Shown: positions 21,373 through 37,978, numbered from the stretch's first letter. The stretch is DNA of 64,000 nucleotides from Candidatus Latescibacterota bacterium (GCA_965223905.1 CBDCXV010000010.1:1312001-1376000); one strand, 5' to 3'. The notes: a model not told the origin generated them from the letters alone. Translations and numbers: made by a program.

Positions 21373-21526
21373 TTGCGGCAGTGCCTGTCAGGGGACTTGA
21401 CCGCCGTAAGCAATACCACCGTGTGGGAGTATCTGATTACGACCGTTCAGCCAAATACGTACCATCGTTTCGGATAAGTAACCCTCGGGCGGTTGTTATC
21501 CGAACAATTGGTTCGGGTACAATCAG

Positions 21527-21865: not shown

Positions 21866-21949
21866 GCCTAACACCTGTTCCCCCGGCTTCGGGCCCTGCG
21901 GGCCCTCCGCCAAACCGCTGTGCGGTTCGGGGGCACTGAGACGTTAGCC
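21866..21949 (+). repeat. attC-like site 1
   Basis: GCCTAAC...CGGGGGCACTGAGAC-GTTAGCC. Confidence 0.9.
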
Positions 21950-21953
21950 GCAA

Positions 21954-22721
21954 GTGGCATTACAACTGACCCATTCCGTGACCAACATGCTGAGCGAGAT
22001 CTACCGGACGAGTTTCGAGTGGGCCAAGCTGGGTGGCCATATCATCGAACACCGTTTTGGAGTCACCGTTTACAACTTGGACCACCCTGAGTACAACGAG
22101 AATAACTGCCTTTGGTATTTCGATCCAGGATTGGCGGATGAGTTTACTTTCCAGGTGGTTGTGGCGGAATTCGAAAGCCTGGGTGTGAGCTGCTCTCAAT
22201 GGGTTCCTTCCCCTTCCGCCAATCTGGATTTATGTGACAATTACTTCCGTGTTCATGAGATGGCTGATTCACCAGGAGAAGGCTTATTGCTCGATCTTGA
22301 TAGGGAATACCACGCTGACGCGAGAATCTGCGCGAAACGCAGCAACAAGCAATCCCTTGCGCAGGTCTATTCCTTGAGTGGCCAGAGATCAACTAGCACT
22401 GTCACGAGGAACAAAGCCTTATCTCTTTTGGGGATAGCGAACTACGAATCGTATGTTTGCTACTGGGATGGGGAACTGGCGGGCAGAGCTGGACTGCTGA
22501 GGGTTCCGGGAAAAGTCGCTCGATTGAAGAGCATTTTCGTCGGCGCCACATTTCGCCGTCAGGGAGTTGCTAGCAGCCTGATAAGGGTGATCGCCACCAA
22601 AGCGAGGGAACTGGGGTACCGCTATCTAGCGTCCGAAGTAGACCCTTCCAACGAGGCGTCGTCGGAATGTCATCGAAAGGTAGGGTTCAAAACCGCAGGG
22701 CTTGTTCACGCGTACAAATGA
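21954..22721 (+). CDS. GNAT family N-acetyltransferase (cassette)
   Basis: IFVGATFRRQGVAS, NEAS..RKVGF; start may be ATG 21987. Confidence 0.8.
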   Translation: MALQLTHSVTNMLSEIYRTSFEWAKLGGHIIEHRFGVTVYNLDHPEYNENNCLWYFDPGLADEFTFQVVVAEFESLGVSCSQWVPSPSANLDLCDNYFRVHEMADSPGEGLLLDLDREYHADARICAKRSNKQSLAQVYSLSGQRSTSTVTRNKALSLLGIANYESYVCYWDGELAGRAGLLRVPGKVARLKSIFVGATFRRQGVASSLIRVIATKARELGYRYLASEVDPSNEASSECHRKVGFKTAGLVHAYK

Positions 22722-22839
22722 CTCGGAGATGGACATCACGCCTATTCCTCGGAGTGAAAGATCAAAACCAGTTGTGTACGTTGTGCCGGCTTTTTAAGGC
22801 CAACCGCGGTTTCTTCGCGTCGAAGGCCAAGCCACCAGC

Positions 22840-22923
22840 GGCTAACACGCCGGGCTGCGGCTCCGGCCATCCGGCCTTCGCCCAACCCGCTTCGCGGGTT
22901 CGCAGCCCACGAAAGCGTTAAGC
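22840..22923 (+). repeat. attC-like site 2
   Basis: GGCTAAC..GGGCTGCG/CGCAGCCC..GTTAAGC. Confidence 0.9.
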
Positions 22924-23255
22924 GAAGGCCAAGGAAAATTTGATTGATTTGGTGGAGTATAGGTCATGATAGGCTGTTGCGGAGTTCGGGGTGGTCCCTC
23001 GCGGTGAGGAAGCATTTGCAGAGATGGGCGGCTCGTCGCACGTGATTCCCCACCCCGTCCGGCGCGCTAATACCGCTTGGGCGTTGCGTTTTACCTGGTC
23101 AGGAAAAGACGAGATCAATGGGCAGTTGGAGAGGTCGGGACCTGCGGATTGGGAGACCGACGAAAGATGGAGGGCTGAGCAAGGGCGCCGGACGGCCTCT
23201 CCACCGCCCAAGCCCGAGAGTTTTCTCCCATCGTGGTCGGGCAGAGCAGGCCCTC
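22918..23255. other. ORF-less cassette body, copy B (candidate structured ncRNA)
   Basis: Bounded by GTTAAGCGA/TCGCTTAAC; diverged copy of 21527-21865. Confidence 0.75.
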
Positions 23256-23340
23256 GCTTAACACCTGTGTCCCCGGCTCCGGGCCCTGCGGGCCCCTCGC
23301 GCAACCGCTTCGCGGTTCGGGGGCACGGAAGACGATATAT
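23256..23340 (+). repeat. attC-like site 3 (ends in non-canonical GATATAT)
   Basis: GCTTAAC...CGGGGGCACGGAAGAC-GATATAT. Confidence 0.88.
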
Positions 23341-23432
23341 GACATGGGTTGTCACAGTACCAGTGAAATTCGACAGAGGCAAAGCTGGCACGGTTGAAAT
23401 CATGAGCCTGCAGGCGCTGGAGAAAAACTGAC

Positions 23433-23924
23433 GTGGATCGCGTAGCCGTATTCGCAGATGTACAGAATGTTTACTACACAGTTAAGCAGCAACATAATTG
23501 CCATTTCGACTATGGTTCTTTCCTCAGGGAGGCGACAGCCGGCCGGAAACTGGTGAAGGCAGTAGCCTATGCTATTGACAAAGGCGACAGAAAGCAGGCC
23601 CAATTTCAGAAAATTCTGAAACGGCTCGGTTTTGAGGTAAAGCTCGCGCCTTATATTCAGAGAGCTGACGGCTCAGCCAAAGGGGACTGGGACGTGGGCA
23701 TTACGGTCGATATGTTGGAGTACGCAGATCGCGTGGATGTCGCTGTCCTGGCTTCAGGTGACGGAGACTACGCGCCTGCAATTGACAAGCTAATCAAGGA
23801 ATCCAAGGTATCCGTCGAGGTGTACGGTGTCCCAGGACTAACTGCTAGTCGTCTAATCGAATCGGCGACGCGATTTGTGCCAATTCAAGGAGATCTGTTG
23901 CTGCCTATTCCCACCACGTGGTGA
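23433..23924 (+). CDS. NYN domain (LabA/DUF88) protein (cassette)
   Basis: VFADVQNVY, KGDWDVGITVD, SGDGDY. Confidence 0.9.
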   Translation: MDRVAVFADVQNVYYTVKQQHNCHFDYGSFLREATAGRKLVKAVAYAIDKGDRKQAQFQKILKRLGFEVKLAPYIQRADGSAKGDWDVGITVDMLEYADRVDVAVLASGDGDYAPAIDKLIKESKVSVEVYGVPGLTASRLIESATRFVPIQGDLLLPIPTTW

Positions 23925-24021
23925 CGTGGAAGCGACACTGTTGCAAAGCCATGCACGCTAACGCACTCTCGCGTCGCTACCTCTCTGCGTTGATCAGCCT
24001 TGGAGCAATCATACCCACGTC

Positions 24022-24111
24022 ATATATCACAGCAATTCACGCTGCCGCCATTCGGCGCTTGGCCTTCGGCAAGTCGCTTTCGCGACTTCGTGAATTGTGA
24101 GAACGTTACAT
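24022..24111 (+). repeat. attC-like site 4 (starts with non-canonical ATATATC)
   Basis: ATATATC..CAATTCACG/CGTGAATTG..GTTACAT. Confidence 0.88.
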
Positions 24112-24154
24112 GAAATGCTTGATAGATATCTGCGATAGACGCTGACAACACGAG

Positions 24155-24784
24155 ATGGACGTAAATCTTCTCTCATCGCGACTTGCCTCGGAATTGGGCT
24201 CGAATAGACTCCTCGTAGCCGCACTCGATGGTCCCGGCGGAGCTGGAAAGTCAACCATCGCCAGGAAACTAAGCGAGAGGTGTAATCTCATCTCAATCGT
24301 TCACGGGGATGACTTCTATGCTCCAATGGAGGAGCATGCGAGAATGGCTCTAACGCCTGAAAATGGTTACATGAGGTATTTTGATTGGGCGAGAATACGG
24401 AGTGAGCTTCTTGAACCCTTATCGCGTGGAGATCGAGCTCGCTACAAGCGCTATGATTGGGGGAGCAACCAGCTGGCGGAGTGGGTTGATCAACCGGCTG
24501 AGGGCATCATCCTGATCGATGGGGTCTATTCATTTCGGCCCGAATTGAGGAAATTCTATGGCTACTCCATTTTCGTCGACACTCCGAAAGCCGAATGTCT
24601 GGATAGGCTGGTCAAGCGAGGTGAAAACACAGACGAATGGATTCGGAGATGGAGGGCAGCGGAAGATTACTATCTGACGCATATAGACACTGCCAGTGCT
24701 GTTTCCGTCGTTGTTTCAGGCATAGGAAGCGCTGGAGCATCGGATCCGATATCGCGACCGAGGATATCCGCGCACTTCATGTAA
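24155..24784 (+). CDS. Uridine kinase-like P-loop protein (cassette)
   Basis: DGPGGAGKST, HGDDFY, YDW; stop codon lies inside ATGTAAC. Confidence 0.85.
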   Translation: MDVNLLSSRLASELGSNRLLVAALDGPGGAGKSTIARKLSERCNLISIVHGDDFYAPMEEHARMALTPENGYMRYFDWARIRSELLEPLSRGDRARYKRYDWGSNQLAEWVDQPAEGIILIDGVYSFRPELRKFYGYSIFVDTPKAECLDRLVKRGENTDEWIRRWRAAEDYYLTHIDTASAVSVVVSGIGSAGASDPISRPRISAHFM

Positions 24785-24859
24785 CACCGTGCCCCCGGCT
24801 TCGGGGCAAAGCCCCTTAGCCCAACCGCTACGCGGTTCGGGAGCACTGAAACGTTAGCC
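24779..24859 (+). repeat. attC-like site 5
   Basis: ATGTAAC-ACCGTGCCCCCG...CGGGAGCACTGAAAC-GTTAGCC. Confidence 0.9.
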
Positions 24860-24929
24860 GAAATGTCGGTTTGAGGCTTACATCATTGCCTCGAGTTGTG
24901 ATTCAACAGAATCAGAAGGAGATGGTCCC

Positions 24930-26642
24930 TTGATAGGTGATTTTGATGTCGATCCGATCACAGGGCGCCTCGTTCTGTGGTGCCGGAGCATTTCCGGAGA
25001 AACCTGGTTGAAAATTACGGAGCCCTCAGGTGAGATCATTGGGGAAGTACCGCCTGAATTTCTTCCCCATCATCCGCGTTGGGCTCCAGATGGACTTCGT
25101 CTTACGTTTTCTGGGAACGATGGCCGCATCGGTGTCTATGAGCTATCTCAGAATGACATAAGGGTCGTCTACGAAGATCAATCCATGCAAGCGGGGTTCA
25201 GCCAGTGGTCGCCAAACGGCACAAGCCTCGTGTTTTCTGCCTACGAAAAGCACAGTACCGAGCAATTGAATAAACGGCCACCTGACATTTTTCACCTCAC
25301 ATTGGATAGCGGCAAACTTGATAGATTGACCGCATCGAAGGACAGTGTGGACAGGTTTCCAAATTGGTCCCCATCCGGTGACCTGATTGCATTTCATCGG
25401 CAAAACCTGGAGGAGCTTAACAAGCCTAAGAAAGTGCATCTATTTGATCTTCAACGTCAAAGAATATCCTTGCTCCTGCCCGAGGCAAATGGTAACCGAT
25501 TTGGTCGATTCCCCTGGTCACGTGACGAAAGCTGGTTTGCACTTCACGTGTCCGACGAGAAGGAAGGGACCGTTCACGTTGTAGATCTTACGGGCCGAGA
25601 TTCCGGGTGGATCTATGAAGATGGGCCTGTGAAAGAAGGTGCATTTTCAAACTCGACGAACAGGCTTCTCTGCGTCAGACCCGATGAGCTTGTTTGGGTG
25701 CAGTTTCCCGTAGGCCGCGTAGATTCACGCATCAGATTGGATTCCGGGGTTAGCGTGGCGAAGAACCTGACTTGGTATCAAATCGCCTTCAGAGCCGACA
25801 GCGATACCGTCTTTTTTCTTGGAACAGACCATAAGGTTTACCGCTGGAAAGAATCTGAAGGATGCACTGTCGTAGCTGAGCATACCGAACCCGTACCGAG
25901 TTTTAGGCTTGAGGAATTTACGGTTCCTGCTTCGGATGGTTTAGCTCTTCCAGCACAGCGGTTGGTTCCGCCGTCTCCACGAGAGCTCGCTGTTCTGTAT
26001 GTGCATGGTGGGCCTGGAGGCAGCCTCGATAGAAATGACTCATGGGCTTTAGGGCTGCTTCGCCAGGGATTCGAGATTGTGCGCGTGGCTTATAGGGGCT
26101 CTACCGGCTTCGGCGAGGACCTCGATCGAGCGAACACCGGGGTCGCCGGGGTCGCAGACGTTCAGGATGTATTAGACTGTGGAATCTACTGGCAGCAACA
26201 CTTTAGTACAGGCAGGAGAATCGCTCTGTTCGGTAATAGCTATGGCGGGTTTCTAAGTCTCCTTGCCCTGGCAGATGCATCTTCACCATTCGTAGGTGGG
26301 ATCTCCACGTGCACTTGCACAAGTCTTCGAATCATGCGCCTCCATCATGATAGATTCCTTCCAAGTAGTCCAACGGAACGCGAGAAAGCATTAGTTGAGC
26401 GATCCGTATTGACACATGCTACCCATATAAAGAGGCCAATCCTGCTGGTTCATGGCGCGCTTGATACCGTCGCGACCACAAGCGAAATGCAGCACGTCGA
26501 GAAACTCATTAATGACTCTGGCGGCAACTGTACGCTAATCGTCTTTGGCGACGACACACACAGTTTGGCAAAGCACCGCGAAGAAATATACGAAAAGGCT
26601 ATCCAATTCTATGAAAAGTGTTCAACGCCTGGACAGGATTGA
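24930..26642 (+). CDS. S9 prolyl oligopeptidase-family peptidase with TolB-like beta-propeller (cassette)
   Basis: WSPxG repeats, HGGPG, GNSYGG, HGALD, DDTH. Confidence 0.88.
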   Translation: MIGDFDVDPITGRLVLWCRSISGETWLKITEPSGEIIGEVPPEFLPHHPRWAPDGLRLTFSGNDGRIGVYELSQNDIRVVYEDQSMQAGFSQWSPNGTSLVFSAYEKHSTEQLNKRPPDIFHLTLDSGKLDRLTASKDSVDRFPNWSPSGDLIAFHRQNLEELNKPKKVHLFDLQRQRISLLLPEANGNRFGRFPWSRDESWFALHVSDEKEGTVHVVDLTGRDSGWIYEDGPVKEGAFSNSTNRLLCVRPDELVWVQFPVGRVDSRIRLDSGVSVAKNLTWYQIAFRADSDTVFFLGTDHKVYRWKESEGCTVVAEHTEPVPSFRLEEFTVPASDGLALPAQRLVPPSPRELAVLYVHGGPGGSLDRNDSWALGLLRQGFEIVRVAYRGSTGFGEDLDRANTGVAGVADVQDVLDCGIYWQQHFSTGRRIALFGNSYGGFLSLLALADASSPFVGGISTCTCTSLRIMRLHHDRFLPSSPTEREKALVERSVLTHATHIKRPILLVHGALDTVATTSEMQHVEKLINDSGGNCTLIVFGDDTHSLAKHREEIYEKAIQFYEKCSTPGQD

Positions 26643-26662
26643 GCTTTACAGGTCCACACAGC

Positions 26663-26746
26663 AGCTAACACATGGGTCACGGCTTCGGGCCATACGGCCC
26701 TTCGCCCAACTCACTTCGTGAGTTCGTGACCCATCAAACGTTATAC
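26663..26746 (+). repeat. attC-like site 6
   Basis: AGCTAAC..ATGGGTCACG/CGTGACCCAT..GTTATAC. Confidence 0.9.
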
Positions 26747-26757
26747 GCCCCAACAAG

Positions 26758-27507
26758 ATGCTGGAGGAACAGGTGGCCGGAAGTAGAGATGATCTCAGAG
26801 AGGCGGTAGAGCGCGGCGACCTCTCCACTGTCAAACGGCTGTTACATACGGAGCCAGGTCTTCTCCACGAGTCCATCCCTCCATGCGATGATCGCAAACA
26901 ACGAGGCCAGATTCTCAGATACCGACCGATGACGCTCGCCGCCGTGGAGTGTCAGACAGAAATTCTCTCTTTTCTGATTGCCGAGGGGGGCGATGTGATG
27001 GAGTACAGCAATTTTCCACTCTGTCGAGCATCACTCTACGACCGTTGTATTCCAACTCTGGAGTTACTGGTTCAGCATGGCGCAGAGGTAAATCGAGTCG
27101 GTAATGACTACGGTCCGCCGTTGATATTCGCGTGCGAAGGAATGGCCCTCGATTGCATCGCATGGTTGCTGGACAACGGCGCGGCAATCACAGGGACTGG
27201 TCCGAGTTTATCTGAAACCGTGTCTTGGAATGCCCTCAAACATGCGGGCTTCTTCAACCGGAAGTGTTCGGGCATGCTTGATTTGCTCCTCGAGCATGGC
27301 GCTGACGTCAACAGTTCAGTTGTTGATGAGGTTGGCGGAGATCCTGAGACTACGGTACTGCACAATGTCGTGGAAAGCGGGGATATTGCTGGCGTGGAGC
27401 TCCTGCTTACCCATGGGGCTGACCAAGATGCCAAAAATGGCAAGGGACAGCGCCCGGTCGAGGTGGCTCGGGAACGCAAAGTCAGAGAACTACTAGAGAA
27501 CATCTGA
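26758..27507 (+). CDS. Ankyrin-repeat protein (cassette)
   Basis: LLVQHGAEVN, LLLEHGADVN, LLLTHGAD..KNGKGQRP. Confidence 0.88.
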   Translation: MLEEQVAGSRDDLREAVERGDLSTVKRLLHTEPGLLHESIPPCDDRKQRGQILRYRPMTLAAVECQTEILSFLIAEGGDVMEYSNFPLCRASLYDRCIPTLELLVQHGAEVNRVGNDYGPPLIFACEGMALDCIAWLLDNGAAITGTGPSLSETVSWNALKHAGFFNRKCSGMLDLLLEHGADVNSSVVDEVGGDPETTVLHNVVESGDIAGVELLLTHGADQDAKNGKGQRPVEVARERKVRELLENI

Positions 27508-27516
27508 GGTTGGAGC

Positions 27517-27607
27517 GCATAACCGCACGTTTGGCGATGCGGCGCTTAGCGCGCCTCGGCCTTCGGCAACCCGCTAAGCGGGTTCGCAAACCGGCAACCC
27601 GTTAGCG
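27517..27607 (+). repeat. attC-like site 7
   Basis: GCATAAC...GGCCTTCGGCAACCCGCTAAGCGGGTTCGCAAAC...GTTAGCG. Confidence 0.85.
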
Positions 27608-27662
27608 GCAATGGAGTTCAGGCCTGGCATGTTCCTCTGGCCAGTCATCAGGAGGCACCAAG

Positions 27663-28148
27663 ATGGAGAATATAATCCTTTCGTTGCAGGGTTTCTCTGT
27701 GTTCCTGCAAATCGCTTTCCTAGTCACTTTGATAGCAATCGCACAGACTCTTCGACGCTCAATTGGAATTTGGAGCCCCTCTTGGATTGTTATCTTTTTC
27801 TCTCTGAAATATTTGGGGGAGTATGCTAATCCCTTCCTGATGAAACTGCTGACTGAGGAATGGACGGCGTTAACAGTCCCAAACGCGCCGGTCACCTTAG
27901 GGCAGTTGTTTGTATTTCTCAGTTCCGCTCACCTGATATTCATACTGCTGGGTGCTTTCGGCCTCCTCGCCCTGGTCTTGTCGGACCTATCCCATTCTTT
28001 GTGGGGCGCAGACGACATACACCCCTCACGTTGGTTTCAGTGTTTCGAGTTGGTCGGCCGTCATCGACTCGGATTCGGGTTGGCTACGGTGCTGTTGGCT
28101 GTAGCGCACCCTGCCCTTCTGGTGGGCCTTCTGTTGAGTAACAATTGA
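27663..28148 (+). CDS. Hypothetical membrane protein (cassette)
   Basis: 161 aa with about 4 hydrophobic segments; AGGAGG RBS; fills the cassette. Confidence 0.75.
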   Translation: MENIILSLQGFSVFLQIAFLVTLIAIAQTLRRSIGIWSPSWIVIFFSLKYLGEYANPFLMKLLTEEWTALTVPNAPVTLGQLFVFLSSAHLIFILLGAFGLLALVLSDLSHSLWGADDIHPSRWFQCFELVGRHRLGFGLATVLLAVAHPALLVGLLLSNN

Positions 28149-28165
28149 GACTGGCAGACCACAGC

Positions 28166-28247
28166 CGATAACACCGTGCCCCTGGCTCCGGCGCCTGCGC
28201 GCCTACGCGCAACCGCTTCGCGGTTCGGGGGCACTGAGACGTTAGAA
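28166..28247 (+). repeat. attC-like site 8
   Basis: CGATAAC-ACCGTGCCCC...GGGGCACTGAGAC-GTTAGAA. Confidence 0.9.
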
Positions 28248-28344
28248 GAAATGGAAAAAAGAATCAGCGCTTAAGTAAGAAATCGCCTGAATAAAGGTAG
28301 AGGTACGATATATTCGCCGTTCAGTTTTTAGGCAGGAGTTTTTA

Positions 28345-29304
28345 ATGAATAGCAAGGCTAGTATCGTAGATGAGTTTTTGCTTAAAGGGGTCATCGGTAT
28401 GAGCAGGGCGATCGGTAAGAATCGTATGTCTGGCCATCCAGGCGCTGCGATGCTTGCTGCATATTTCTTTTGTGTTGAGAATGCCCTGTCAGACGAGGTT
28501 CAGGCCGAGGTCTATAATCTCGTGAGACGCATGGTCAACTCAGAATCAATGTGGTTCAGCAGAGATGGAGAATCTTCAACCAATGAGATCTTCTTTTCTA
28601 CCAAACCAGATCAGAGACCAAACGCGGATCTAATCCCGTCTGTTGCCACTGCACTAGAACCCAGTATCACCGAATGTCGGGATTCAGGACACAATACTAT
28701 CTTCGCGTCGTTAGTACTGAAGGCACTGCACACCGCGCCACATTATGCATTTCCTGCGATTATTGAAGGTATCATAAACTTGCTCAAAGCTTTTGAGGGA
28801 CGTGGGCCGGGATGGGCACGTGTACCAGGTAATGAGAAATTAGCAGATCCCCGTGAGTTTTCGGTACCTCAAGAACTGGATGATCCTTCCTATGAGAGCC
28901 ATATCGACATGATCGAAGCAGTATCCCGCTATGTCGTACCAGATAACTTCGCCAAAAAAGGCGTTGGTGGGCCGATCCATGTCATAGATCATGCCGTAGC
29001 TCTGTTAGATCTGCACGCGTTGGGGTATTCTTCGTTGGCGAATAGAGGACTGGCAGCTCATCAGCAACATATGAAGTTGTGGCTGGGCCTCCCTAAATTT
29101 CCGCAAGCTGAAAACAGCTACTCCGTGAAATCGAAGCACGATCCTCGCGCATTGGACTACTGGCGTGAGAAGATAACCATAAAAGATGGTGGCGGTGATG
29201 AACACCGACTGAAGATTCTCTATGGCGCGCACCGTTTTGCCGAGTGCATTACAGACGTAAACAAACGTCGAAGTTTTCTTGAAAGTGCGGCGCACCTGTT
29301 TTGA
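28345..29304 (+). CDS. Hypothetical protein with several His motifs (cassette)
   Basis: 319 aa, AGGAG RBS; SGHPGAA, SGHNTIF, IHVIDHA. Confidence 0.75.
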   Translation: MNSKASIVDEFLLKGVIGMSRAIGKNRMSGHPGAAMLAAYFFCVENALSDEVQAEVYNLVRRMVNSESMWFSRDGESSTNEIFFSTKPDQRPNADLIPSVATALEPSITECRDSGHNTIFASLVLKALHTAPHYAFPAIIEGIINLLKAFEGRGPGWARVPGNEKLADPREFSVPQELDDPSYESHIDMIEAVSRYVVPDNFAKKGVGGPIHVIDHAVALLDLHALGYSSLANRGLAAHQQHMKLWLGLPKFPQAENSYSVKSKHDPRALDYWREKITIKDGGGDEHRLKILYGAHRFAECITDVNKRRSFLESAAHLF

Positions 29305-29370
29305 AAATGCGCCTAACGGCGAGCGTTGTTGGCTCTCTTTTTCTTTTACAGAAACTAAATATGCCACTTC

Positions 29371-29457
29371 TTCTAACACATCCATTTACGCTACGGCGCT
29401 ACGCGCCTTGGCCTTCGGCAACCCGCTGCGCGGGGTCGCAAACCGGGGACGTTAGAG
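29371..29457 (+). repeat. attC-like site 9
   Basis: TTCTAAC...GGCGCTACGCGCCTTGGCCTTCGGCAACCC...GTTAGAG. Confidence 0.88.
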
Positions 29458-29991
29458 GCCATGCGGCCAGACAAGAGGACAATCGCAAATGAGGCTTGGG
29501 AGAATCTGACGATGCTGGAAGAGGGTGAATCCGTCCAAGGTTGTGTCAATCCCGTTGTGCGGATTGGAGATACCGTGCGCAGGCCTATCCATAGCTGGAC
29601 TCCAGCCGTCCATTCCTTGCTGCACTACTTGGAGGCGGTTGGCTTTTCAGGATCTCCCCGTGTCCTCGGATTCGACGAACTGGGAAGAGAGGTGCTTTCG
29701 TTCATCCCAGGGGAAGTTGCTCTGCGACCATGGCCGGAGGTGATGGGTGAGGAGAAGGGCCTCGCTGAGGTCGCCCGTTTTCTCTCCAGATATCACAATG
29801 CCGTGAAAGACTTTGAGCCACCAGAGAATGCTGAATGGTATGTTCCCATGTGACGTGGCGACCAGGAATGACCATCCGACACGGGGATCTTGGACCCTGG
29901 AATACTATCTGGGAAGGGCGAACCTTAAACTGGAGTTGACCCGATTTCGTGGACACTTCATTTCTTGGAGAAAGAAAGGAGATGTCCAACC

Positions 29992-30306
29992 ATGCCGAAA
30001 TCACATAGCCCGTATCCGCCGGAATTCCGGCAACAGATGGTTGAGCTCGTACGGGCGGGTCGTAGCCCGGAGGCGTTGGCCAAGGAATTCGAGCCGTCCG
30101 GGCAGACGATCCGCAACTGGGTGATCCAGGCCGAACGCGATGAGGGGGTGCGTCGCGACGGGCCGAGCCGCCCCGAACAGGAGGAGCTGCGGCGCCTTCG
30201 CCGTGAGAACAAGCAACTGCGTATCGAACGGGGGATCCTGGCAAAAGCCACGGCCTGGTTCGCTCGCGAGGCCGACTCGGGGTCCGGCCCGTCTACGAGT
30301 TCATGA
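29992..30306 (+). CDS. IS3 transposase OrfA
   Basis: YPPEFRQQMVELV HTH; EELRRLRRENKQL zipper. Confidence 0.9.
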   Translation: MPKSHSPYPPEFRQQMVELVRAGRSPEALAKEFEPSGQTIRNWVIQAERDEGVRRDGPSRPEQEELRRLRRENKQLRIERGILAKATAWFAREADSGSGPSTSS

Positions 30307-31187
30307 GAGCGCACCAGGCCGACTTTCCGGTGTTCACGATGTGCCGCGTGCTGAAGGTGTCCCCCAGCGGCTACTACGCCTGGTTGAAGCGCCCGCCGTC
30401 GGGTCGCACTCGGGCCGATGCGGTGCTCAAGGCGCGCGTCGAGCAGATCCACCAACGCTCCCGAGGCACTTACGGGGCGCCGAGGATCCGGGCCGAACTG
30501 GCCGAGGAGGGGCGCGGCGTCAGTCGCAAGCGCATCGCCCGATTGATGCTCGAGCTCGGGGTGCGTGGGGTATGCGGGCGGCGCCGGATCTCCACGACCC
30601 GCCGCAGCCGGCAGGGCCGGGTCGCCTCCGACCTGGTCAACCGGGTGTTTTCGGCCTCGGGCCCGAATCTGCTGTGGGTTGCCGACATCACCTACCTGCC
30701 CACCGCTTCGGGTTTTTTGTATCTGAGTGTGGTGGTCGACGCCTGGAGCCGCCGGGTGGTGGGCTGGGCTATGGCGAGCCATCTGCGTACGCAGCTGGTG
30801 CTCGACGCCCTTGACATGGCCCTGTACCGGCGTCGCCCCCACTCGGTAATCCACCACTCCGATCACGGCAGTCAGTATACGGCCCTGGCCTTCGGGCAAC
30901 GCTGTCGCCAGGCCGGGGTGCGCCCGTCGATGGGATCGGTCGGTGACTGCTACGACAATGCCCTGTGCGAAAGCTTTTTCGCCACGCTGGAAAGGGAGTT
31001 GTTGGATCGTCATCGGTTTGCTACCCATGCCGAGGCCCGGCTAGCTGTTTTCGAGTACCTGGAAGGCGGGTACAATCGCCAGCGGCGGCATTCCGCCCTG
31101 GGACAACGGTCTCCCGTCAACTACGAGAGATATCACCAATCAGAGAGTGTAGATCCAAACGCAAAACTGTCCGTGAAATCGGGGTAA
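30303..31187 (+). CDS. IS3 transposase OrfB (DDE)
   Basis: WVADITY, HHSDHGSQY, DNALCESFF; ATGA overlap with orfA. Confidence 0.93.
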   Translation: MRAHQADFPVFTMCRVLKVSPSGYYAWLKRPPSGRTRADAVLKARVEQIHQRSRGTYGAPRIRAELAEEGRGVSRKRIARLMLELGVRGVCGRRRISTTRRSRQGRVASDLVNRVFSASGPNLLWVADITYLPTASGFLYLSVVVDAWSRRVVGWAMASHLRTQLVLDALDMALYRRRPHSVIHHSDHGSQYTALAFGQRCRQAGVRPSMGSVGDCYDNALCESFFATLERELLDRHRFATHAEARLAVFEYLEGGYNRQRRHSALGQRSPVNYERYHQSESVDPNAKLSVKSG

Positions 31188-31562
31188 CCTCAAACGGGGT
31201 AATCGACTGGGACTTTGCTGAACCAGGTGATGCTCTCTGCGATGTTAGTCAGTTTGCTTGGTATGCGGTGCCTCTCCGAGGAGAAGACCACTGGAGAAAG
31301 GCTGGATTTTCTGATAAGCCTGATCTCAGGGCCAGACTAACCGTACTTTCTGACACCTATGGTACGGACTCCAAAGCAATCTTGGACACCCTATGCAATC
31401 TGCAATTGGAAGAGTATCGCAGGACCGAGACTCTGGGCAGGCAGGGACTCCTCCCCTGGTCCATCTTCTACGAACGTGGGGATCTTGCGGAACTCTCAAA
31501 AGAAAACACGTGGCTGAGAGAGAATTACGATTCGCTTGCCGTATAGAAGCGGTCCGCACGTC

Positions 31563-31658
31563 TTCTAACACGTCCACTTGCGCTGCGGCGCATATGCGCC
31601 TTGGCCTTCGGCAACCCCTCGACAAGCTCGGGGTTCGCAAGTGGCGAAAACGTTAGGT
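31563..31658 (+). repeat. attC-like site 10
   Basis: TTCTAAC..CCACTTGCG/CGCAAGTGG..GTTAGGT. Confidence 0.9.
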
Positions 31659-31689
31659 GCCATCTGAAAGATTCCACTGTGGAGGACTC

Positions 31690-32667
31690 GTGAAAGGATT
31701 CGAATTGTCAGAGAGGTTCTTCCGGGAGATTGGGCTTCCCACCATTGAGCAACGATTGCCCGGGTGTGTCCCGAGACTGGCAGTGGGCGTTAGTGGAGGC
31801 TCGCAAGCGCACAAGAACGACGATGCAGTGTCTCGCGATCACGGTTGGGGGCCGAGATTCACGGTGTGGTTTGCCAAAGACGATTTCGATGATCACAGTG
31901 AGCGTCTACAGGAAGTGCTGGACACGCTGCCCAATGAGTATGAGGGATTTCGATGGGAGGATCCACGGGCCAGGACCTGTGGTGTAATCGAAATCGGTAG
32001 CTATATAGAATCTGCAGTTGGATTCTCAGAACCACCCGAGTCGCCCATGGACTGGTTGCGAATACCCGAGTCGTACCTATTCGAGTTGACTCCGAGCAGG
32101 CTCTATCACGATGGGCCTGGCATTGTCAGTGCTCGCTTCCGAGCGTTCTCCACATACCCTGATGATGTCTGGAAGCAGCGAATGGGGGCTTGCCTTTCCT
32201 GGCTCTGGGAGTGGGGACGAAAGCATCTCTTCAGGGCGGAAACTCGAGGAGACCACGTGAGTGCGTCTTGCTATTGGGCAAGATTTGCTGAGTACGCAAT
32301 GAAGGTTGGTTTTCTGATGAGTCATCGTCATGCACCCTACCACAAATGGTTGTGGAGAGAGTTCAGGAAGTTGGGTGCCATTGCCGACCAAGTTTCTCCT
32401 TTGCTTGAGGAGGGGTTCGAGAAGGTGGAAGGCAGACGAGAACTCGTTGACCGCATAGAGATGATCTATATGGAGATGCTTCAGCAGCTTGGCTTTTCAC
32501 CAGCGGTCCAAGCAGCCACTAGAAGATTGGCCTATCCAGACAATGAACTGCTTCGATATGCCCAGAGTGTTCGTAACGCCATTGAGACTCCAGAAATCAA
32601 GAAACTGCACTTGAGAGAAGAGCTTGTCTATCCAGCAACTAAGGCCGCGTGGACATGGCTACGATAG
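31690..32667 (+). CDS. DUF4037 domain-containing nucleotidyltransferase-like protein (cassette)
   Basis: GFELSERFF, DAVSRDHGWGP, YPDDV, APYHKW; GTG after GGAGG. Confidence 0.8.
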   Translation: MKGFELSERFFREIGLPTIEQRLPGCVPRLAVGVSGGSQAHKNDDAVSRDHGWGPRFTVWFAKDDFDDHSERLQEVLDTLPNEYEGFRWEDPRARTCGVIEIGSYIESAVGFSEPPESPMDWLRIPESYLFELTPSRLYHDGPGIVSARFRAFSTYPDDVWKQRMGACLSWLWEWGRKHLFRAETRGDHVSASCYWARFAEYAMKVGFLMSHRHAPYHKWLWREFRKLGAIADQVSPLLEEGFEKVEGRRELVDRIEMIYMEMLQQLGFSPAVQAATRRLAYPDNELLRYAQSVRNAIETPEIKKLHLREELVYPATKAAWTWLR

Positions 32668-32686
32668 GGACGATCTGGTAGACAGC

Positions 32687-32768
32687 ACCTAACACCGTGC
32701 CCCCGGCTTCGGGCCGTTCGGCCCTTCGCCCAACCGCTGCGCGGTTCGGGGGCACTGAGACGTTAAGA
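32687..32768 (+). repeat. attC-like site 11
   Basis: ACCTAAC-ACC-GTGCCCCCG/CGGGGGCAC-TGAGAC-GTTAAGA. Confidence 0.92.
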
Positions 32769-32802
32769 GAAATGTTTTAAGAGACGAGTAGGAGTTTCAG
32801 GT

Positions 32803-33513
32803 TTGAGACCAGTTCTTCTGTTTGACCTTGGCGACACCCTTGTGCAGTACTATCGCAGGGAAGAGTTTCCTCCTTTGCTGCGGGCAGGAATTCACGCAGC
32901 CAAAGAGGCACTGGAGCGTTCGGGACACGATTTGCCTTCGGATTCTGAGATCGAGCGCGGTGTCGCGACTGAGAACTACGAAGCCAAAAACAGTCGCGTT
33001 CGCCCACTCCACAAGAGGCTTGGTCGTATCTTTGCGGTCGCACCTTGCGTTTCGGAGGAAGAGTGGCTGCCGATCTGTCGTGCCTTCCTCACGCCAATCA
33101 TTTCTATTGCCAAGATCTATGAAGACACTCTTCCGGCTCTAGATGCGCATCTGGCGGATGGCTGCCGCGTAGGAATCCTGTCGAACTGTCCTTGGGGTTC
33201 ACCGAGCGAGCCCTGGTTTGAAGAACTGCGGCGACATGGCCTTTCGACGCGATGCGAGGTGGCTATCTTTTGTTCGGATGTAGGGTGGCGGAAGCCCGCC
33301 CAACCTATGTTTCGCCGGGCATTGGATCATTTTGGATGCAAACCAGAGGAATGCCTGTTTGTCGGAGATAATGCAAGGTGGGACATTATGGGTGCGAGAC
33401 GAGCGAATATGATTTCCGTGCTCATCGACCGAATCGGTCACGTGGATGTGAGTTCGGGACTTGTTATCCGATCTTTGCTTGATCTAAAGCCCGTCCTCGA
33501 ACGATTGGATTGA
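32803..33513 (+). CDS. HAD family hydrolase (cassette)
   Basis: FDLGDTL, LSN, RKP, FVGD..WDIMGA. Confidence 0.88.
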   Translation: MRPVLLFDLGDTLVQYYRREEFPPLLRAGIHAAKEALERSGHDLPSDSEIERGVATENYEAKNSRVRPLHKRLGRIFAVAPCVSEEEWLPICRAFLTPIISIAKIYEDTLPALDAHLADGCRVGILSNCPWGSPSEPWFEELRRHGLSTRCEVAIFCSDVGWRKPAQPMFRRALDHFGCKPEECLFVGDNARWDIMGARRANMISVLIDRIGHVDVSSGLVIRSLLDLKPVLERLD

Positions 33514-33545
33514 ACGCACTTCAACGATTGGATTGAACGCACTTC
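33500..33545 (+). repeat. Perfect 23-bp tandem duplication
   Basis: AACGATTGGATTGAACGCACTTC x2. Confidence 0.95.
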
Positions 33546-33628
33546 TCTTAACACGACCGGGCCCGGCTACGGGCCATACGGCCCTTCGCCCGACCGCTTC
33601 GCGGTTCGAGCACGGCGAAAGGTTATAT
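33546..33628 (+). repeat. attC-like site 12
   Basis: TCTTAAC...GGGCCATACGGCCC..ACCGCTTCGCGGT...GTTATAT. Confidence 0.88.
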
Positions 33629-33653
33629 GACATGAGTAACAGGTGAGCGTGAG

Positions 33654-34730
33654 ATGAGATCGTCGATTCTTCCAATCTTACTCGTGTTTGCTCATATCAC
33701 GGCCAGCGAAGGAGGTGAGCCAATGTTTAGCGTAACCGTTGATCCGCGGATAGAGCTGCTGTCCGTTGTGGGAGTATTGGCCGACCACCAGGGCATGACG
33801 AACTACGACATCCAGTATAGGCAAGAAATCCTAAATCGCTTTTCCAATCACAGGAATCACAACGCCGTCACGTTTCTACGCCGTGTCATGGATAGGGCAC
33901 TTGCATCCGATGCATACGCGACCGTTATGATCCATTTGTCGCAGCCTCCCGCATTAAAGTTTGAGAGTCCGATCAACGACGACGCGATGGAGGACTATGT
34001 CACCCGAGCGTTTGGTGGCGACATTAATATCATTGCATTTGTCGAGACGCTCCGTGACTTCGTCAAGGATTCAGATTTCATCGAGTTTTACAGCTCCCAA
34101 TCACGTTTCTATCAATCTTTGAGATCAGATGCTTTGGACAAGCTTGGTAGCACAGATTATATGAATACGCTTGAACAATACGTTGGCGATAAGCAGGAAA
34201 ACTATCACATCATTCTCGGGCCCCTGCTCCATCACGGCGGTTTTGGACCCCGGATCGTAGGCGACAAGGGCGTGACTGATCTCTTCAGTATCATCGGCCC
34301 GGTGGGCGAGGATGAGGGGGTTCCCGACTTTGGAGACCGAGCTAGACTTCAAGACGTTCTTTGGCACGAGTTTGCACATTCATTTGTCGATCCCATAACC
34401 GCCGATCACCTGATGAGCGTTAATGAATATTCGTCCCTGTATATACCTATTGCAGAACAAATGGCGAGCGCTGGCGGCTACATGAACTGGCAAACCTGCG
34501 TCAACGAACACATAATCAGAGCCATTACATGTCGATTGTTCCACTCTGAGATGGGGACGGAGGCTGGAGAGCAGGCCCTTGCGGCCGAGAGGGAGCGAGG
34601 CTTTCGTTACATCGACGCCATCCATTCAAGGTTGTTGGAGTATGAGGGTAATAGGTCGACGTATAGCACGCTCAGGAGTTTCTATCCTGAGATCGTCGCT
34701 GCGTTTGCACAGATTGCAAGCGAGAATTGA
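33654..34730 (+). CDS. DUF4932-like protein with HExxH motif (cassette)
   Basis: VDPRIELLSVV, HEFAHSFV, NEHIIRA. Confidence 0.8.
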   Translation: MRSSILPILLVFAHITASEGGEPMFSVTVDPRIELLSVVGVLADHQGMTNYDIQYRQEILNRFSNHRNHNAVTFLRRVMDRALASDAYATVMIHLSQPPALKFESPINDDAMEDYVTRAFGGDINIIAFVETLRDFVKDSDFIEFYSSQSRFYQSLRSDALDKLGSTDYMNTLEQYVGDKQENYHIILGPLLHHGGFGPRIVGDKGVTDLFSIIGPVGEDEGVPDFGDRARLQDVLWHEFAHSFVDPITADHLMSVNEYSSLYIPIAEQMASAGGYMNWQTCVNEHIIRAITCRLFHSEMGTEAGEQALAAERERGFRYIDAIHSRLLEYEGNRSTYSTLRSFYPEIVAAFAQIASEN

Positions 34731-34760
34731 AAACGGAAGTTCCGCAAGAGGACCCACGTC

Positions 34761-34845
34761 ATATAACACGTCCGTGCCCGGCTTCGGCGCTGAGGCGCCT
34801 TCCCGCAACCGCATTCGCGGTTCGGGCACGGCGAAAACGATATCT
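34761..34845 (+). repeat. attC-like site 13 (ends in non-canonical GATATCT)
   Basis: ATATAAC..CCGTGCCCG/CGGGCACGG..GATATCT. Confidence 0.88.
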
Positions 34846-35168
34846 GAAATAGGAAAAGAAAAACAGAGCCTATTCAGTATATCTCCAGCCATTGGGAGAA
34901 TACTGCGTTTTCGCAGTACAATCACTAGTTATAGAGCCAGGAGAAGAAACCAGCGATTGTGACCAATGAAGCTGACAGGCGGCAGGACGAATAGCACCGG
35001 GAGCGGAGGAGATGCTCGCCTTGAGGTCGGATCAACTGGCAGGATCGGAAAAGCCAAACATTGGAATCAACAAGAACTGCTGATGAGCCGGCGGCAGTAA
35101 CTTCCGCATTCGCGTCACACCACAAGAGGGTCGCCTTTGCGCCTTCAGAATCGAAAAGGAGCCCACCC

Positions 35169-35876
35169 ATGGAACGGATTTTCTCAAATCTCTACCGCAT
35201 CGGAGGCGAGCCCCACGAGCGCGGGCAGTCGCATTCCTACCTCCTCGTGAGAAAGACGGGCAATCTGTTCATCTGCCACCAGAGCGTCCCGACGTCGGCG
35301 GACGTGAAGGAGATCAAGCAGCTCGGCGGGGTTGCGAGTCAATTTGTCTGCCACCATTGGGACGCGAACCGGAAGGGCGGACACGACGGGCTCTTCAAGA
35401 CGTTCGGCTGCGCGCTTCACCTTCACAGGGCGGATCGCGCCGCCGCGCGAGGCAAGACGAAGTTCACGCTCGACACGTTCGACGACGCGGGGCTGACGCT
35501 GGACAAGGATTTCGAGGCCATCTACATGCCGACGTGCACGCGCGGCCATACGGTCTTCCGGTGGCGCAACCGTGGGAAGTACCACCTGTTCTCAAGTCAC
35601 GCTATCTACCTTCTCGAGGACGGATGGCGTCTCAGCTTGAACCGCCACGAAGGCAAGCTTTGGGGGCCAGGTTGTAGGATTTGGCAGGCGCAAGCCATAC
35701 GACCGGCGCTCGCCAAGTTGAAGGGCCTCCAGGTGGATCACATATTTCCGGGTTACACGCAGGTGGGTGACGACACCTTCTACCGGTTAGACGACCGCAA
35801 GAGGCGGGCGCTGACCCGCGCCCTGAAGGCGGAGCTCATGACCGCCGATCATCTGTTGGATTCTCGGCAGCTATGA
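35169..35876 (+). CDS. Metallo-beta-lactamase-fold-like protein (cassette)
   Basis: HSYLLVRKTGNL, CHHWD, LHRAD, TRGH, IFPG. Confidence 0.65.
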   Translation: MERIFSNLYRIGGEPHERGQSHSYLLVRKTGNLFICHQSVPTSADVKEIKQLGGVASQFVCHHWDANRKGGHDGLFKTFGCALHLHRADRAAARGKTKFTLDTFDDAGLTLDKDFEAIYMPTCTRGHTVFRWRNRGKYHLFSSHAIYLLEDGWRLSLNRHEGKLWGPGCRIWQAQAIRPALAKLKGLQVDHIFPGYTQVGDDTFYRLDDRKRRALTRALKAELMTADHLLDSRQL

Positions 35877-35945
35877 GGCAGGCTTAGAGAAAGAGAACCT
35901 CACAGACAACAGATTACCAGACGACCTCTCGTTGAAGCTTAGGAA

Positions 35946-36035
35946 GTATATCACAGAAATTCCCACTGCGCGCCATTCGGCGCTTGGCCTTCGGCAACCT
36001 ACTCCGTGGGTTCGCAAACCGGCATTACGTTACCT
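35946..36035 (+). repeat. attC-like site 14 (starts GTATATC; arms poorly paired)
   Basis: Left part resembles site 4; right arm CGCAAACCGG resembles sites 7 and 9; ends GTTACCT. Confidence 0.8.
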
Positions 36036-36064
36036 GCCATGGCAGTGCCCATAAGGAGAGACAC

Positions 36065-37198
36065 ATGAAGTCCCTGACATCCATCATCGCCGCCTCAATC
36101 CTCCTCCTCTCGCCCATCCTCGCCCACCACGAACGAGCAGAACCCCCGGAGGGAGCCGTGGCCCGAACCGTCCTGCCAGACGTCAAGATGCCGATCATGA
36201 ACGAGCACTCCCGTTCCACCCTCGTCTGCGCGATGTACGCACTGCTGCCGGCTCTCGGGCAACAGGGCTGGTCGATCCCTCGACTGGAAGCGCTGACGGG
36301 ATACGCCTTCTACTTCCAGATGCGGGAGGGGGGCGAGTCGGTCTTCGACGACGATCTCGATTGGGGCCTGGCCATGCACGTCCTCGACATCTTTGGTCAG
36401 GCGAAAGTCTATGATGCGGACAAGAACTCGGACGTTGATCTCCCTGCGCTCAAGGCCGAAGCGCGAGACGCAGTCGTCGCCAGCCTGGAGAACGGACTCC
36501 CCAGCCTCGTTTGGGCGCCACGAAGCCTGGAGCAGAGGGGCAAGGTCCATTTCGCTTGCTGGGGCCTCATCGTCGGCTACAACGCGGCAGACGGAACCTA
36601 CATGATCCGCCAACCGGCCGAGAAGCTCGACTACCCGGTCCGCTTTGACGCCATCGGGTTCGCCGATCCGAGCGATTGGTTCCGCGTCGACACCTTCAAG
36701 CCGAAAGAACTTGACGACAACGCTCTGCACCTCACCTCACTCCGCAATGCCGTCGCCTTCGCGAACGGCACTCGCTACGACAACCCCCAGGTCGTCGAGG
36801 CCGCCCTCGTGCATCCCCCGAAAAACCCCTATGGATTCGCCGCCTACGAGCTCTGGCAGGAAGCGTTCGAATCTGACGTAAATCTGAACGCCACGTTCTT
36901 CCACACAGAAACCCTGAAACCGCGTAGAGAGGCCGCGGCCGCCTACCTGCGGGAGCTCACCTATGCCTATCCGGCCGCCGCCAATCCGCTGGAAGCAGCA
37001 GCTGTTCACTATGATCGAGAGGTCGAATCCATCACCGCAATCTCCGACCTGTGCGTTGCCGCCACCAAGCACGAGCCCAAGGCCTTCACCCCCGACGAGC
37101 GCGCCGAAATCCGCCCCCTCATCGCCCAAGCGTTGAAGGCCGACCGGGCCGCCGTGGCGCAGATCGAAGCCGCGCTCAAGATTCTGGAGACGCCGTGA
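36065..37198 (+). CDS. Hypothetical secreted protein (cassette)
   Basis: AAGGAG RBS, signal peptide, WGLIVGY motif. Confidence 0.75.
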   Translation: MKSLTSIIAASILLLSPILAHHERAEPPEGAVARTVLPDVKMPIMNEHSRSTLVCAMYALLPALGQQGWSIPRLEALTGYAFYFQMREGGESVFDDDLDWGLAMHVLDIFGQAKVYDADKNSDVDLPALKAEARDAVVASLENGLPSLVWAPRSLEQRGKVHFACWGLIVGYNAADGTYMIRQPAEKLDYPVRFDAIGFADPSDWFRVDTFKPKELDDNALHLTSLRNAVAFANGTRYDNPQVVEAALVHPPKNPYGFAAYELWQEAFESDVNLNATFFHTETLKPRREAAAAYLRELTYAYPAAANPLEAAAVHYDREVESITAISDLCVAATKHEPKAFTPDERAEIRPLIAQALKADRAAVAQIEAALKILETP

Positions 37199-37283
37199 GG
37201 CAGGCTCAGCGTGCTCTTGACCGGGGCCCATCGTGAGGGGGGGAGTACGCTGTTTCTTTGCCGATTCTCAAACTGCCACAGGC

Positions 37284-37367
37284 AGGTAACACGTCCGTGC
37301 CCGGCTTCGGGCTTACGCCCTTCGCGCAACCGCTTTCGCGGTTCGGGGGACGGCGAAGACGTTAAGT
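37284..37367 (+). repeat. attC-like site 15
   Basis: AGGTAAC-ACGTCCGTGCCCG...ACGGCGAAGAC-GTTAAGT. Confidence 0.9.
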
Positions 37368-37408
37368 GGCATGCGCACGATAAGTCCGACCTGGTTTAGA
37401 GGTCATGG

Positions 37409-37978
37409 ATGAATCGGCACTTTGTCGTCTCGATAAACTCGGTCTCGGGAGGAGGGAAAACCGCTTTGGCGACCGCCTTGCATCGCTCACTGCCCCAATC
37501 AGCTCTGTTTTGCTTCGACGATTTCGATGACTCCAACGTTTATCCAGAGGACTTCTATGAGTGGAGCCGCCGAGGGGCCGATATAACGGAATTTGACTGT
37601 CCTGGGATGAGAAACGCGGTCGACCAAGAAATTCAAAGGGGTACGGCGAAACAGATAATCCTTGATTTCCCGTTTGGACGCCGCCACCCTCGATTCGCTG
37701 ACATCATCGATCTCGACGTGTTCATCGATACTCCCCTTGACGTAGCTATGGCACGTCGAATCTTGAGAGACCATTCCGGCGATAGCCAGAAATCCGCAGA
37801 AGAAGCATTGAAGGATCTACTGGATGGATTGACCCACTATCTGGAAAAGGCTCGACACCCGTTTTTGGATGCCCACAAAGCCAAGGACGTGAGTGATCTC
37901 ATTCTGGACGGATGGCGCAGTCTTGACGATCTGAAGACCGAGGTTCTGGTTCGGATAGATTCGGGCCAGAAATCGTAG
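37409..37978 (+). CDS. Uridine kinase-like P-loop protein (cassette whose own att site is lost)
   Basis: SVSGGGKT, FDDF, FIDTPLDVAMARRILRD. Confidence 0.8.
   Translation: MNRHFVVSINSVSGGGKTALATALHRSLPQSALFCFDDFDDSNVYPEDFYEWSRRGADITEFDCPGMRNAVDQEIQRGTAKQIILDFPFGRRHPRFADIIDLDVFIDTPLDVAMARRILRDHSGDSQKSAEEALKDLLDGLTHYLEKARHPFLDAHKAKDVSDLILDGWRSLDDLKTEVLVRIDSGQKS

Follow-up and report, generated by a model that had tools for sequence, protein, structure and literature searches.

A stretch of 64,000 nucleotides from a Candidatus Latescibacterota genome (GCA_965223905.1, CBDCXV010000010.1:1312001-1376000), here called the window, contains an array of gene cassettes separated by integron-type attC recombination sites. 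Integron recombination sites are regarded as having one invariant, the GTT/AAC triplet. One cassette of the array, which carries a gene for a NYN-domain protein, starts with GAT and ends with ATC. The two changed triplets represent a natural, mobile variant of attC, which is well supported for the NYN cassette and more weakly for a second GAT-start cassette in the same array. The sites are very probably genuine attC sites in which the second base pair of the R-box triplet is flipped from T:A to A:T, giving GAT in R' and ATC in R'', with the changed pair inherited as part of the cassette and inserted repeatedly at the G.

Results

The NYN cassette and its compensated triplet

An earlier note on this DNA had placed four terminal motifs in the array, and all are present: GATATAT (23334-23340) and ATATATC (24022-24028) at the ends of the NYN cassette, and GATATCT (34839-34845) and GTATATC (35946-35952) at the ends of the second cassette. 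The mobile unit is the NYN cassette (23335..24105, plus strand), whose first bases, ATATAT, follow the shared G at 23334 and whose last base is the G of its own attC. Its cargo is an open reading frame (ORF) of 163 aa (23433..23924, plus strand) that matches Pfam PF01936 NYN with an E value of 1.1e-37. The NYN attC (24022..24111, plus strand) has R'' ATATATC at 24022-24028 and, in the array, R' GTTACAT at 24105-24111. Its layout, R''(7)-5-L''(8)...L'(8)-8-R', is that of the canonical sites. The cassette start GATATAT is complementary to R'' ATATATC at 7/7 positions, and at 15/16 over a longer stretch. When the attC is joined to its own cassette start, the predicted bottom-strand hairpin has an energy of -33.8 kcal/mol and all three triplet pairs are formed.

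The canonical comparator is the DUF4932 cassette (33622..34767, plus strand), which starts with GTTATATGACATG at 33622 and carries acccacgtcatataac ending at 34767, with R'' reading ...ACCCACGTCATATAAC. Comparison of the two cassettes showed that their ends differ essentially by the paired T>A and A>T change, as had been claimed. The sequence said to be shared by the two ATC sites is borne out as a 26-mer, GCCATTCGGCGCTTGGCCTTCGGCAA, which occurs only at 24047 and 35972 and has no match in 100 shuffles; its TTGGCCTTCGGCAA part, however, is also found in other sites of the family. Both GAT starts in the window have ATC ends, and the 12 other cassettes have GTT/AAC.

The attC upstream of the NYN cassette (23256..23340, plus strand) belongs to the preceding cassette and has R'' GCTTAAC. 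Its R' in the array reads G|ATATAT, the last 6 bases of which belong to the NYN cassette. The triplet of this site is predicted to be unpaired in the array context and paired when the site is joined to its own cassette start. The attC of the DUF4932 cassette (34761..34845, plus strand) similarly has the array R' G|ATATCT.

The attC family

Full-length alignment of 15 attC sites of the window with MAFFT, the DUF4932 site included, gave the consensus NNNTAAC ... CGTTANNN. The alignment and a covariance model built from it (R1) were used instead of brute-force scans of the window for paired 7-mers and local folds, which were swamped by the GC-rich background. The model recovers 15/15 window sites with scores of 54-84 bits, the best match being the site that precedes the NYN cassette (84.2 bits), with the NYN attC at 74.7 bits and the DUF4932 site at 71.9 bits. 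Two further matches lie in the window, one clear (40386-40468; 44 bits) and one weak (39714-39809; 19.5 bits). The L-box stem shows double compensatory changes in 12/17 predicted pairs. The ATC triplets at 24026-24028 and 35950-35952 and the GAT triplets at 23334-23336 and 34839-34841 depart from AAC and GTT, and share alignment columns with the AAC and GTT of the other 13 sites. Thus, the palindromes align, covary and fit a covariance model, and the region is a cassette array of integron-type attC sites. With R1, the family extends from the 15 aligned sites to 290 full sites in 18 genomes.

The complementarity of the NYN ends follows a general rule of the family. The start 7-mer of a cassette, comprising the shared G and six further bases, is the reverse complement of its own R'' at 7/7 positions in 9, at 6/7 in 4 and at 5/7 in 1 of the 14 window cassettes, as read from the alignment. 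Among 173 cassettes no longer than 4 kb, drawn from the window and the first six genomes, the rule applies at 7/7 in 108 and at 6/7 in 32. Across 175 cassettes of the census described below that also match at positions 4-7, the per-position complementarity is 0.92-0.99 at positions 1-8. The stem runs at least 7 positions past the 7-bp R box, as in the pairing of 24105-24120 with 24770-24785 in the window. G:C occupies position 8 in 171/175 cassettes, and covariation is seen at positions 9 and 12-14. In 136/175 cassettes, position 11 has an A opposite a C, a mismatch in the top strand and a T.G wobble in the bottom strand; the wobble may be a feature of strand choice. The attC spacers are of unequal length in the 15-site alignment (~4-5 vs 7-8 nt). 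No extrahelical bases were identified in the family sites from the alignment, the stem-position analysis or the predicted folds.

For folding, each attC was joined in silico to its own cassette start, as in the excised circular form, and compared with the site in its array context. The hairpin of the circular form is stabler than that of the array form in 13/14 window cassettes, and the bottom strand is predicted to be stabler than the top strand in 13/14. Energies of the circular-form hairpins lie between -24 and -38 kcal/mol in 13/14 cassettes. The triplet is predicted to be paired in the circular form in 12/14, the NYN cassette among them.

Copies of the NYN cassette and their junctions

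The NYN cassette is present in three copies in this genome (G000), and further copies occur in genomes G012 and G002. The copy on C1 of this genome was found by a genome-wide scan with R1, with a site score equal to that of the window NYN attC. It has 7 differences in ~770 bases from the window copy and is the first cassette of its array, adjoining a divergent IntI-like gene. Its junction reads ...GCAATCAG|ATATATGACATGGGT, its R'' is ATATATC and the next cassette starts with GTTATGT. The third copy, at ~1670800 of C10, is the first cassette after an attI-like head and is disrupted by an insertion sequence (IS). This IS of ~2 kb lies inside the NYN R'', between CATAT and ATATC (C10 ~1667900-1670800, minus strand), and the ORF of the same copy carries an insert of ~80 nt with the same ends as the IS. 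The G012 copy has 9 differences from the window copy, is the first after a head and is directly followed by another GAT-start cassette. In G002 the copy lies within an array, after another attC, and most of its own attC has been deleted. At this locus (L102, ~3130-3170) ...CATATATA is followed by CGGAAGAC GTTACCT, so that the NYN attC is almost wholly lost and the cassette is fused to the next one; the loss looks like a hairpin deletion. A contig of the public sequencing run X1 joins a head of the type seen in genome G095 to G|ATATAT, and in G095 the same head is followed by TTAGCA.

Comparison of the near-identical copies showed that they diverge leftwards from 23333 and rightwards from 24106/24109. 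In five contexts the common sequence begins at the G and ends within GTTA, and nothing else is shared upstream, as for units that move with a crossover at the G. Since the A of GAT is present behind heads that otherwise read CAG|TTA, it belongs to the moving cassette, with the crossover at the G. The earlier note had put the crossover right after the G. The junction at the G agrees with this, as the context-specific sequence ends just before it; however, crossovers before and after the G give identical junctions. The proposal that GAT cassettes insert among GTT ones is confirmed by the positions of the NYN cassette behind ordinary attC sites and behind attI-like heads that elsewhere read CAG|TTA. 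The copies show that the GAT/ATC pair was inherited with the NYN cassette through repeated insertion at G|TT targets, both at heads and in ordinary arrays.

A joint between 23321 and 24051, with 729 bases missing, is present in one contig each of runs X7 and X9. Precise excision would not give this junction, and the joint may represent a different, chimeric-looking attC. The exact 26-mer of the NYN cassette start gave 0 matches in a metagenome scan.

Census of triplets

The closest named relatives of the genome are Candidatus Latescibacterota metagenome-assembled genomes. A scan with R1 gave 663 matches in 75/151 genomes of the same phylum-level sample. For the census, 40 array regions from 18 genomes were taken around the best-scoring matches and every match was aligned to R1; 6 of the 296 array matches had gaps in the R boxes and were dropped, leaving 290 sites. 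The R'' triplet is AAC in 258 sites, ATC in 16 and GAC in 7, with nine others seen once each. The R' triplet is GTT in 263, GAT in 13, ATT in 4, GTC in 4, TTT in 3, GTA in 2 and ATC in 1. ATC and GAT are the commonest departures from AAC/GTT. About 5% of the sites in the clade have ATC or GAT, and ~10% have some non-canonical triplet.

Neighbouring sites were chained into cassettes, identical ones were removed and those of up to 4 kb were kept, which left 228. An A at position 2 of the start and the facing T of R'' are both present in 6 of these, the A only in 6, the T only in 3 and neither in 213 (Fisher 4e-7). With at least 3/4 matches required at positions 4-7, which are independent of the triplet, the counts are 5/1/2/167 (Fisher p = 1e-7). 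Both Fisher values ignore kinship, and their significance is overstated because related genomes and copies are not independent. A partner search by complementarity, independent of R1, found a GAT start for 8/16 ATC sites and an ATC end for 7/13 GAT starts, one partner (in G002) having a changed last base. Thus, the correlation of GAT starts with ATC ends holds within cassettes, but unmatched GAT and ATC sites exist.

At least 7 cassette types with unrelated genes carry the GAT/ATC pair. Their cargo includes NYN, GNAT, a weak transglutaminase-like ORF and several unknowns, and the first cassette of genome G001 is also of this kind. The compensated cassettes have at least 4 different attC bodies. 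The earlier note had proposed a GAT lineage of cassettes; the paired change is indeed linked within cassettes, but more than one attC subtype is probably involved rather than a single lineage. A sister site in G001 has an NYN-type attC body with the canonical ATATAAC and a cassette start GTTATAT, indicating that both triplet states occur in sister sites. Also in G001 (L105 8000-8083 and 7259-7340, minus strand), a homologue of the window cassette 24106-24853 starts with GATATAT, not GTTACAT, and keeps the R'' ATGTAAC. Such a hybrid could have arisen if a crossover or deletion took place in the common ATGA that immediately follows the R' box. A second compensated kind was observed in G125 (L048 8117-10048), where a cassette starting with GTCGCAC has its own R'' GTGTGAC (GTC/GAC); the cassette after it starts with GTCACAC and has R'' GTGTATC.

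The warning that strict AAC/GTT searches would miss GAT/ATC cassettes applies to strict motif searches, but not to the covariance model, which finds both sites in the window. A degenerate R'' motif of 15 bases was also tried. It hit 116 or more metagenome stretches, and an R1-type site was found at 0/80 loci examined, so these were rejected as chance matches.

The second GAT-start cassette

The second cassette (34840..36029, plus strand) contains an ORF at 35169-35876, and its attC (35946..36035, plus strand) has R'' GTATATC. The label MBL-like that had been given to this cassette finds no support: the ORF has no sequence match in Pfam, NCBIfam or PDB. By eye, window 34839-34940 and the GATATCT-start cassette just 3' of the NYN attC in G012 (L107) have a similar leader of ~100 nt and different coding regions.

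The attI-like heads

The array begins at an attI-like head (21457..21526, plus strand), which ends with ...CAATCAG at 21526 and is followed by the first cassette, TTAGGC..., with no integrase gene adjoining. On C1 of this genome and in three related genomes (L053-L055), the interval from the IntI-like gene to the first cassette can be aligned with this segment of ~70 bases; in the three relatives the junction is CAG|TTA. At related loci the head lies ~250 bp from a divergently transcribed IntI-like gene. On C1 and in L053-L055 it therefore has the position of an attI next to intI, and is a putative attI by this position. Heads are partly palindromic, with the core TTAYCCGAACNANTNGTTCGG... and the end CAG|; several occur per genome, mostly without an adjoining integrase. 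The core motif (21496-21518) is present at a total of 28 distinct heads, namely the window head, C1:1176215, C10:1670816 (minus strand) and C1:1609360 of this genome, and 24 further ones in relatives. An integrase homologue lies beside 6/30 head loci examined.

The sequence after the 28 heads is TTA in 19, ATATAT in 4 and another in 5. The four ATATAT heads precede NYN cassettes on C1 and C10 of this genome and in G012, and a different cassette with R'' AAATATC in G001. GAT is thus found at 4/28 heads vs 13/290 R' boxes; as the copies are related, the enrichment is suggestive only and is not claimed.

The IntI-like recombinase

No protein of this genome matches the integron-integrase family TIGR02249 over its cut-off. 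The IntI-like gene on C1 (C1:1175160-1176020; L001 1192-2082, minus strand) scores 128 + 86 bits against a cut-off of 265; this family is its closest, its scores for XerC, XerD and XerA being lower. The gene is frameshifted and lacks model positions 182-253. An intact relative of 293 aa (L053 6001-6882) is 97% identical over 226 matched residues. Its best match among solved structures is VchIntIA (158 bits), and the 60 residues at VchIntIA chain positions 179-238 are represented by 18, i.e. ~42 fewer. We take this stretch of VchIntIA to be the IntI-specific insertion that contacts extrahelical bases. The IntI-specific additional domain is absent from the gene beside the C1 head. Acquisition of the I2 helix is described, in an eLife 2020 abstract, as the step toward single-strand recombination.

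In G002, G004, G012, G016 and G020, genes of the short type are divergently oriented to arrays at a distance of 1-2 kb. Canonical integron integrases over the cut-off are found in 15/151 genomes, and none of these carries the described GAT cassettes. No R1-type sites were found near distant integrase homologues (~40% identity, other phyla); since R1 is specific to this family, this says little. The short IntI-like enzyme encoded beside some heads probably moves these cassettes.

Other features of the array

The window array spans ~21457-40481 on the plus strand and contains at least 15 attC sites of one family. Its G+C content is ~0.5-0.57 vs 0.65-0.75 in the flanks. An imperfect palindrome or attC site lies 3' of each plus-strand ORF, at the 3' end of co-oriented, usually single-ORF cassettes. 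The cargo families are unrelated, and Pfam families among the plus-strand ORFs are GNAT, NYN, kinase-like P-loop, peptidase S9, ankyrin, DUF4037, HAD, DUF4932, PhyH and DUF6933. A TonB-dependent receptor gene forms the left flank. A domain search of the window proteins found no integrase domain in the ORFs flanking the array or elsewhere in the window. With at least 2 attC sites and no integrase nearby, the array corresponds to a cluster of attC sites lacking an integron integrase (CALIN). An IS3-family (rve) transposase gene (30303-31187) interrupts one cassette, and an ISL3 transposase gene (45802-47100) lies beyond the right end. Directly 5' of the R'' of the HAD cassette is a direct tandem duplication of 23 bases (33500-33545), aacgattggattgaacgcacttc twice.

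Discussion

In the array, bases 2-7 of R' lie at the 5' end of their own cassette and R'' at its 3' end, so that ~0.7-1.9 kb of chromosome separates the two changed bases. Excision as a circle brings them together as one base pair of the hairpin. The recombinase would cut the bottom strand at the T-C step of 5'-ATATAT|C-3', the equivalent of the A-C step in AAC, and only the G would have to match between partner sites. Selection on pairing in the excised hairpin would keep the two changes together. As only the circle regains the pairing, the compensated change suggests that selection acts on the excised hairpin, the substrate of insertion.

Several observations weigh against this explanation. 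The ends of the second cassette, GATATCT and GTATATC, are complementary at 5/7 positions, its circular-form hairpin is predicted at -12.8 kcal/mol with the triplet unpaired, and its attC has the lowest R1 score of the 15 sites (54 bits). The 5/7 match and the weak fold indicate that this site is probably decayed. The claim of two natural GAT/ATC cassettes in the window is therefore well supported for the NYN cassette, but not to the same degree for the second pair. In the census, 6/13 GAT starts lack an ATC partner: GATATCTTGAAG of a HicB-like cassette (G125, G122 and G091), GATAGGA (G020), GATATCTGAAAT (G012) and the cassette with a GATATAT start and an ATGTAAC end (G001). Likewise, 8/16 ATC ends lack a GAT start (G016, G081, G002, G125, G105 and two isolated ones in G000), the DNA upstream of the G105 site being outside the stretch examined. 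The complementarity search gave no convincing partner for GATATCTTGAAG, GATAGGA, GATATCTGAAAT of G012 and several ATC sites; the TCCTATC matches in L038 are probably fortuitous. Fusion or decay of cassettes may account for some of the unmatched sites, as may crossovers a few bases right of the G. Most GAT/ATC pairs share a GATAT core and several are copies of one cassette, which means few independent origins and adds to the overstatement of the Fisher values. In the array, the sites on either side of a GAT cassette are both mismatched at position 2 of the triplet. Finally, the only IntI-like gene of this genome is both frameshifted and without the IntI-specific insertion.

Some of these observations would also be expected if the sites were decaying in arrays without recombination, with neutral T>A and A>T changes that look paired through a few related copies. 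The window array lacks an integrase and the one IntI-like gene of the genome is broken; the site at 35946 is weak, the R'' of the third NYN copy holds an IS, the attC of the G002 copy is deleted, and unmatched GAT or ATC sites exist. However, one and the same GAT/ATC cassette follows three different heads and two different attC sites, each time joined at the G, and must have moved after it gained both changes. The pair is also carried by at least 7 cassette types with unrelated genes, and no variants are commoner than ATC and GAT, as would follow from their being tolerated best (PMC2811028). Decay alone is thus an improbable source of the pairs. Still less probable, to the point of being hardly credible, is a spread of the copies by homologous recombination or segmental duplication, in which case the GAT core would be uninformative about integrase tolerance. 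Repeated attC sites and GAAATG-type flanks could support such exchange, and the G001 hybrid, with its GATATAT start and ATGTAAC R'', fits a crossover a few bases right of the G. However, identity starts exactly at the G and ends within GTTA in four contexts, and the upstream partners, heads in some cases and attC sites in others, have no homology beyond the G.

Errors of sequencing or assembly have a negligible chance of having produced the changes at the four positions. Homopolymer-length differences between copies (23422 and 23940) and the frameshift in the integrase gene are typical of long-read consensus errors. The changes in question are substitutions at paired positions, however, and are present in three copies of this genome, in G012, G002, G020, G004, G125 and G001, and in contigs of four public runs. 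The contigs of these runs, from four studies, cover 23334-24044 and show no other letter at 23335 or 24027. Inside the cassette, 23610 and 23865 are the only positions at which they depart from the window, and there they carry the alleles of a second NYN copy of the same genome. One of the four runs may be the source sample, so that they are not four fully independent confirmations; copies of the NYN cassette in other contexts are independent of that run. Sequencing error is excluded as the source of the NYN GAT and ATC.

Beyond genuine attC sites with a flipped triplet pair, a more far-reaching joint reading can be entertained, which as a whole we consider doubtful. The GAT/ATC cassettes might form a distinct behavioural class in a non-canonical integron system. 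Their triplet might be fully paired only in the circle or between neighbouring GAT cassettes, as in G012, and they might insert efficiently at GTT heads and be excised poorly from mixed arrays. The system might be run by IntI-like recombinases that naturally lack the IntI-specific insertion (I2 helix region), acting on attC sites with long stems, in which a bottom-strand T.G wobble takes the place of the classical extrahelical bases. If so, this behaviour in insertion and excision would explain how one NYN cassette came to head several arrays in at least two genera.

The flipped triplet pair has a close laboratory precedent. In Frumerie et al. (Nucleic Acids Res 2009/2010; PMC2811028), T2->A2 mutants of attCaadA7 and attCVCRd in which the complement was also changed are reported to show raised attC x attI1 recombination by IntI1. 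These mutants recombined with the wild-type GTT attI1 at least as frequently as the wild type did and were cleaved in vitro; identity between the partners is required at G1 only, and T2 is tolerant. The same study, whose aim was to explain the conservation of the triplet, cites GAT as a preferred secondary site of IntI1 (its reference 21), calls the triplet GTT absolutely conserved in all integrons characterised until then, and concludes that the triplet is kept for cassette exchange between integrons and not for mechanistic reasons. Those constructs have the same triplet pair with the complement changed, but were made in the laboratory and tested with IntI1, whereas the sites described here are natural, occur in several cassettes and are known from sequence alone. 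The GAT/GNT secondary sites of IntI1 share the acceptance of G-A-T as a cleavage or target triplet; they are, however, simple double-stranded targets by which a cassette is trapped, in contrast to a complete folded attC with a compensating ATC.

The present sites resemble canonical attC sites (59-base elements; RYYYAAC ... GTTRRRY) in their hairpin architecture, their 3' position in co-oriented single-ORF cassettes, and a cassette boundary at G|NN at which the cassette's own 5' end completes the R box. They differ in the ATC/GAT triplet, the stem of at least 7 positions past the R box and the position-11 T.G wobble. The window array is like a CALIN (Cury et al. 2016; PMC4889954) in having at least 15 attC sites without an integrase nearby, but it still starts with a conserved attI-like head. 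No description of natural GAT/ATC attC sites was found in the literature searched, whose coverage was without most subscription journals and included passages of PMC4889954, PMC3518468, PMC12901181 and PMC8352920.

That such sites can work was predicted by experiment (PMC2811028), and the cassettes described here are the counterpart in nature. The movement of compensated cassettes among GTT sites indicates that selection acts on base pairing in the excised hairpin, and the A that travels with the cassette fixes the crossover at the G. Motif searches that require AAC/GTT under-count cassettes. With natural single- and double-sided variants of the same attC, the clade is a test bed for the role of triplet pairing in insertion versus excision.

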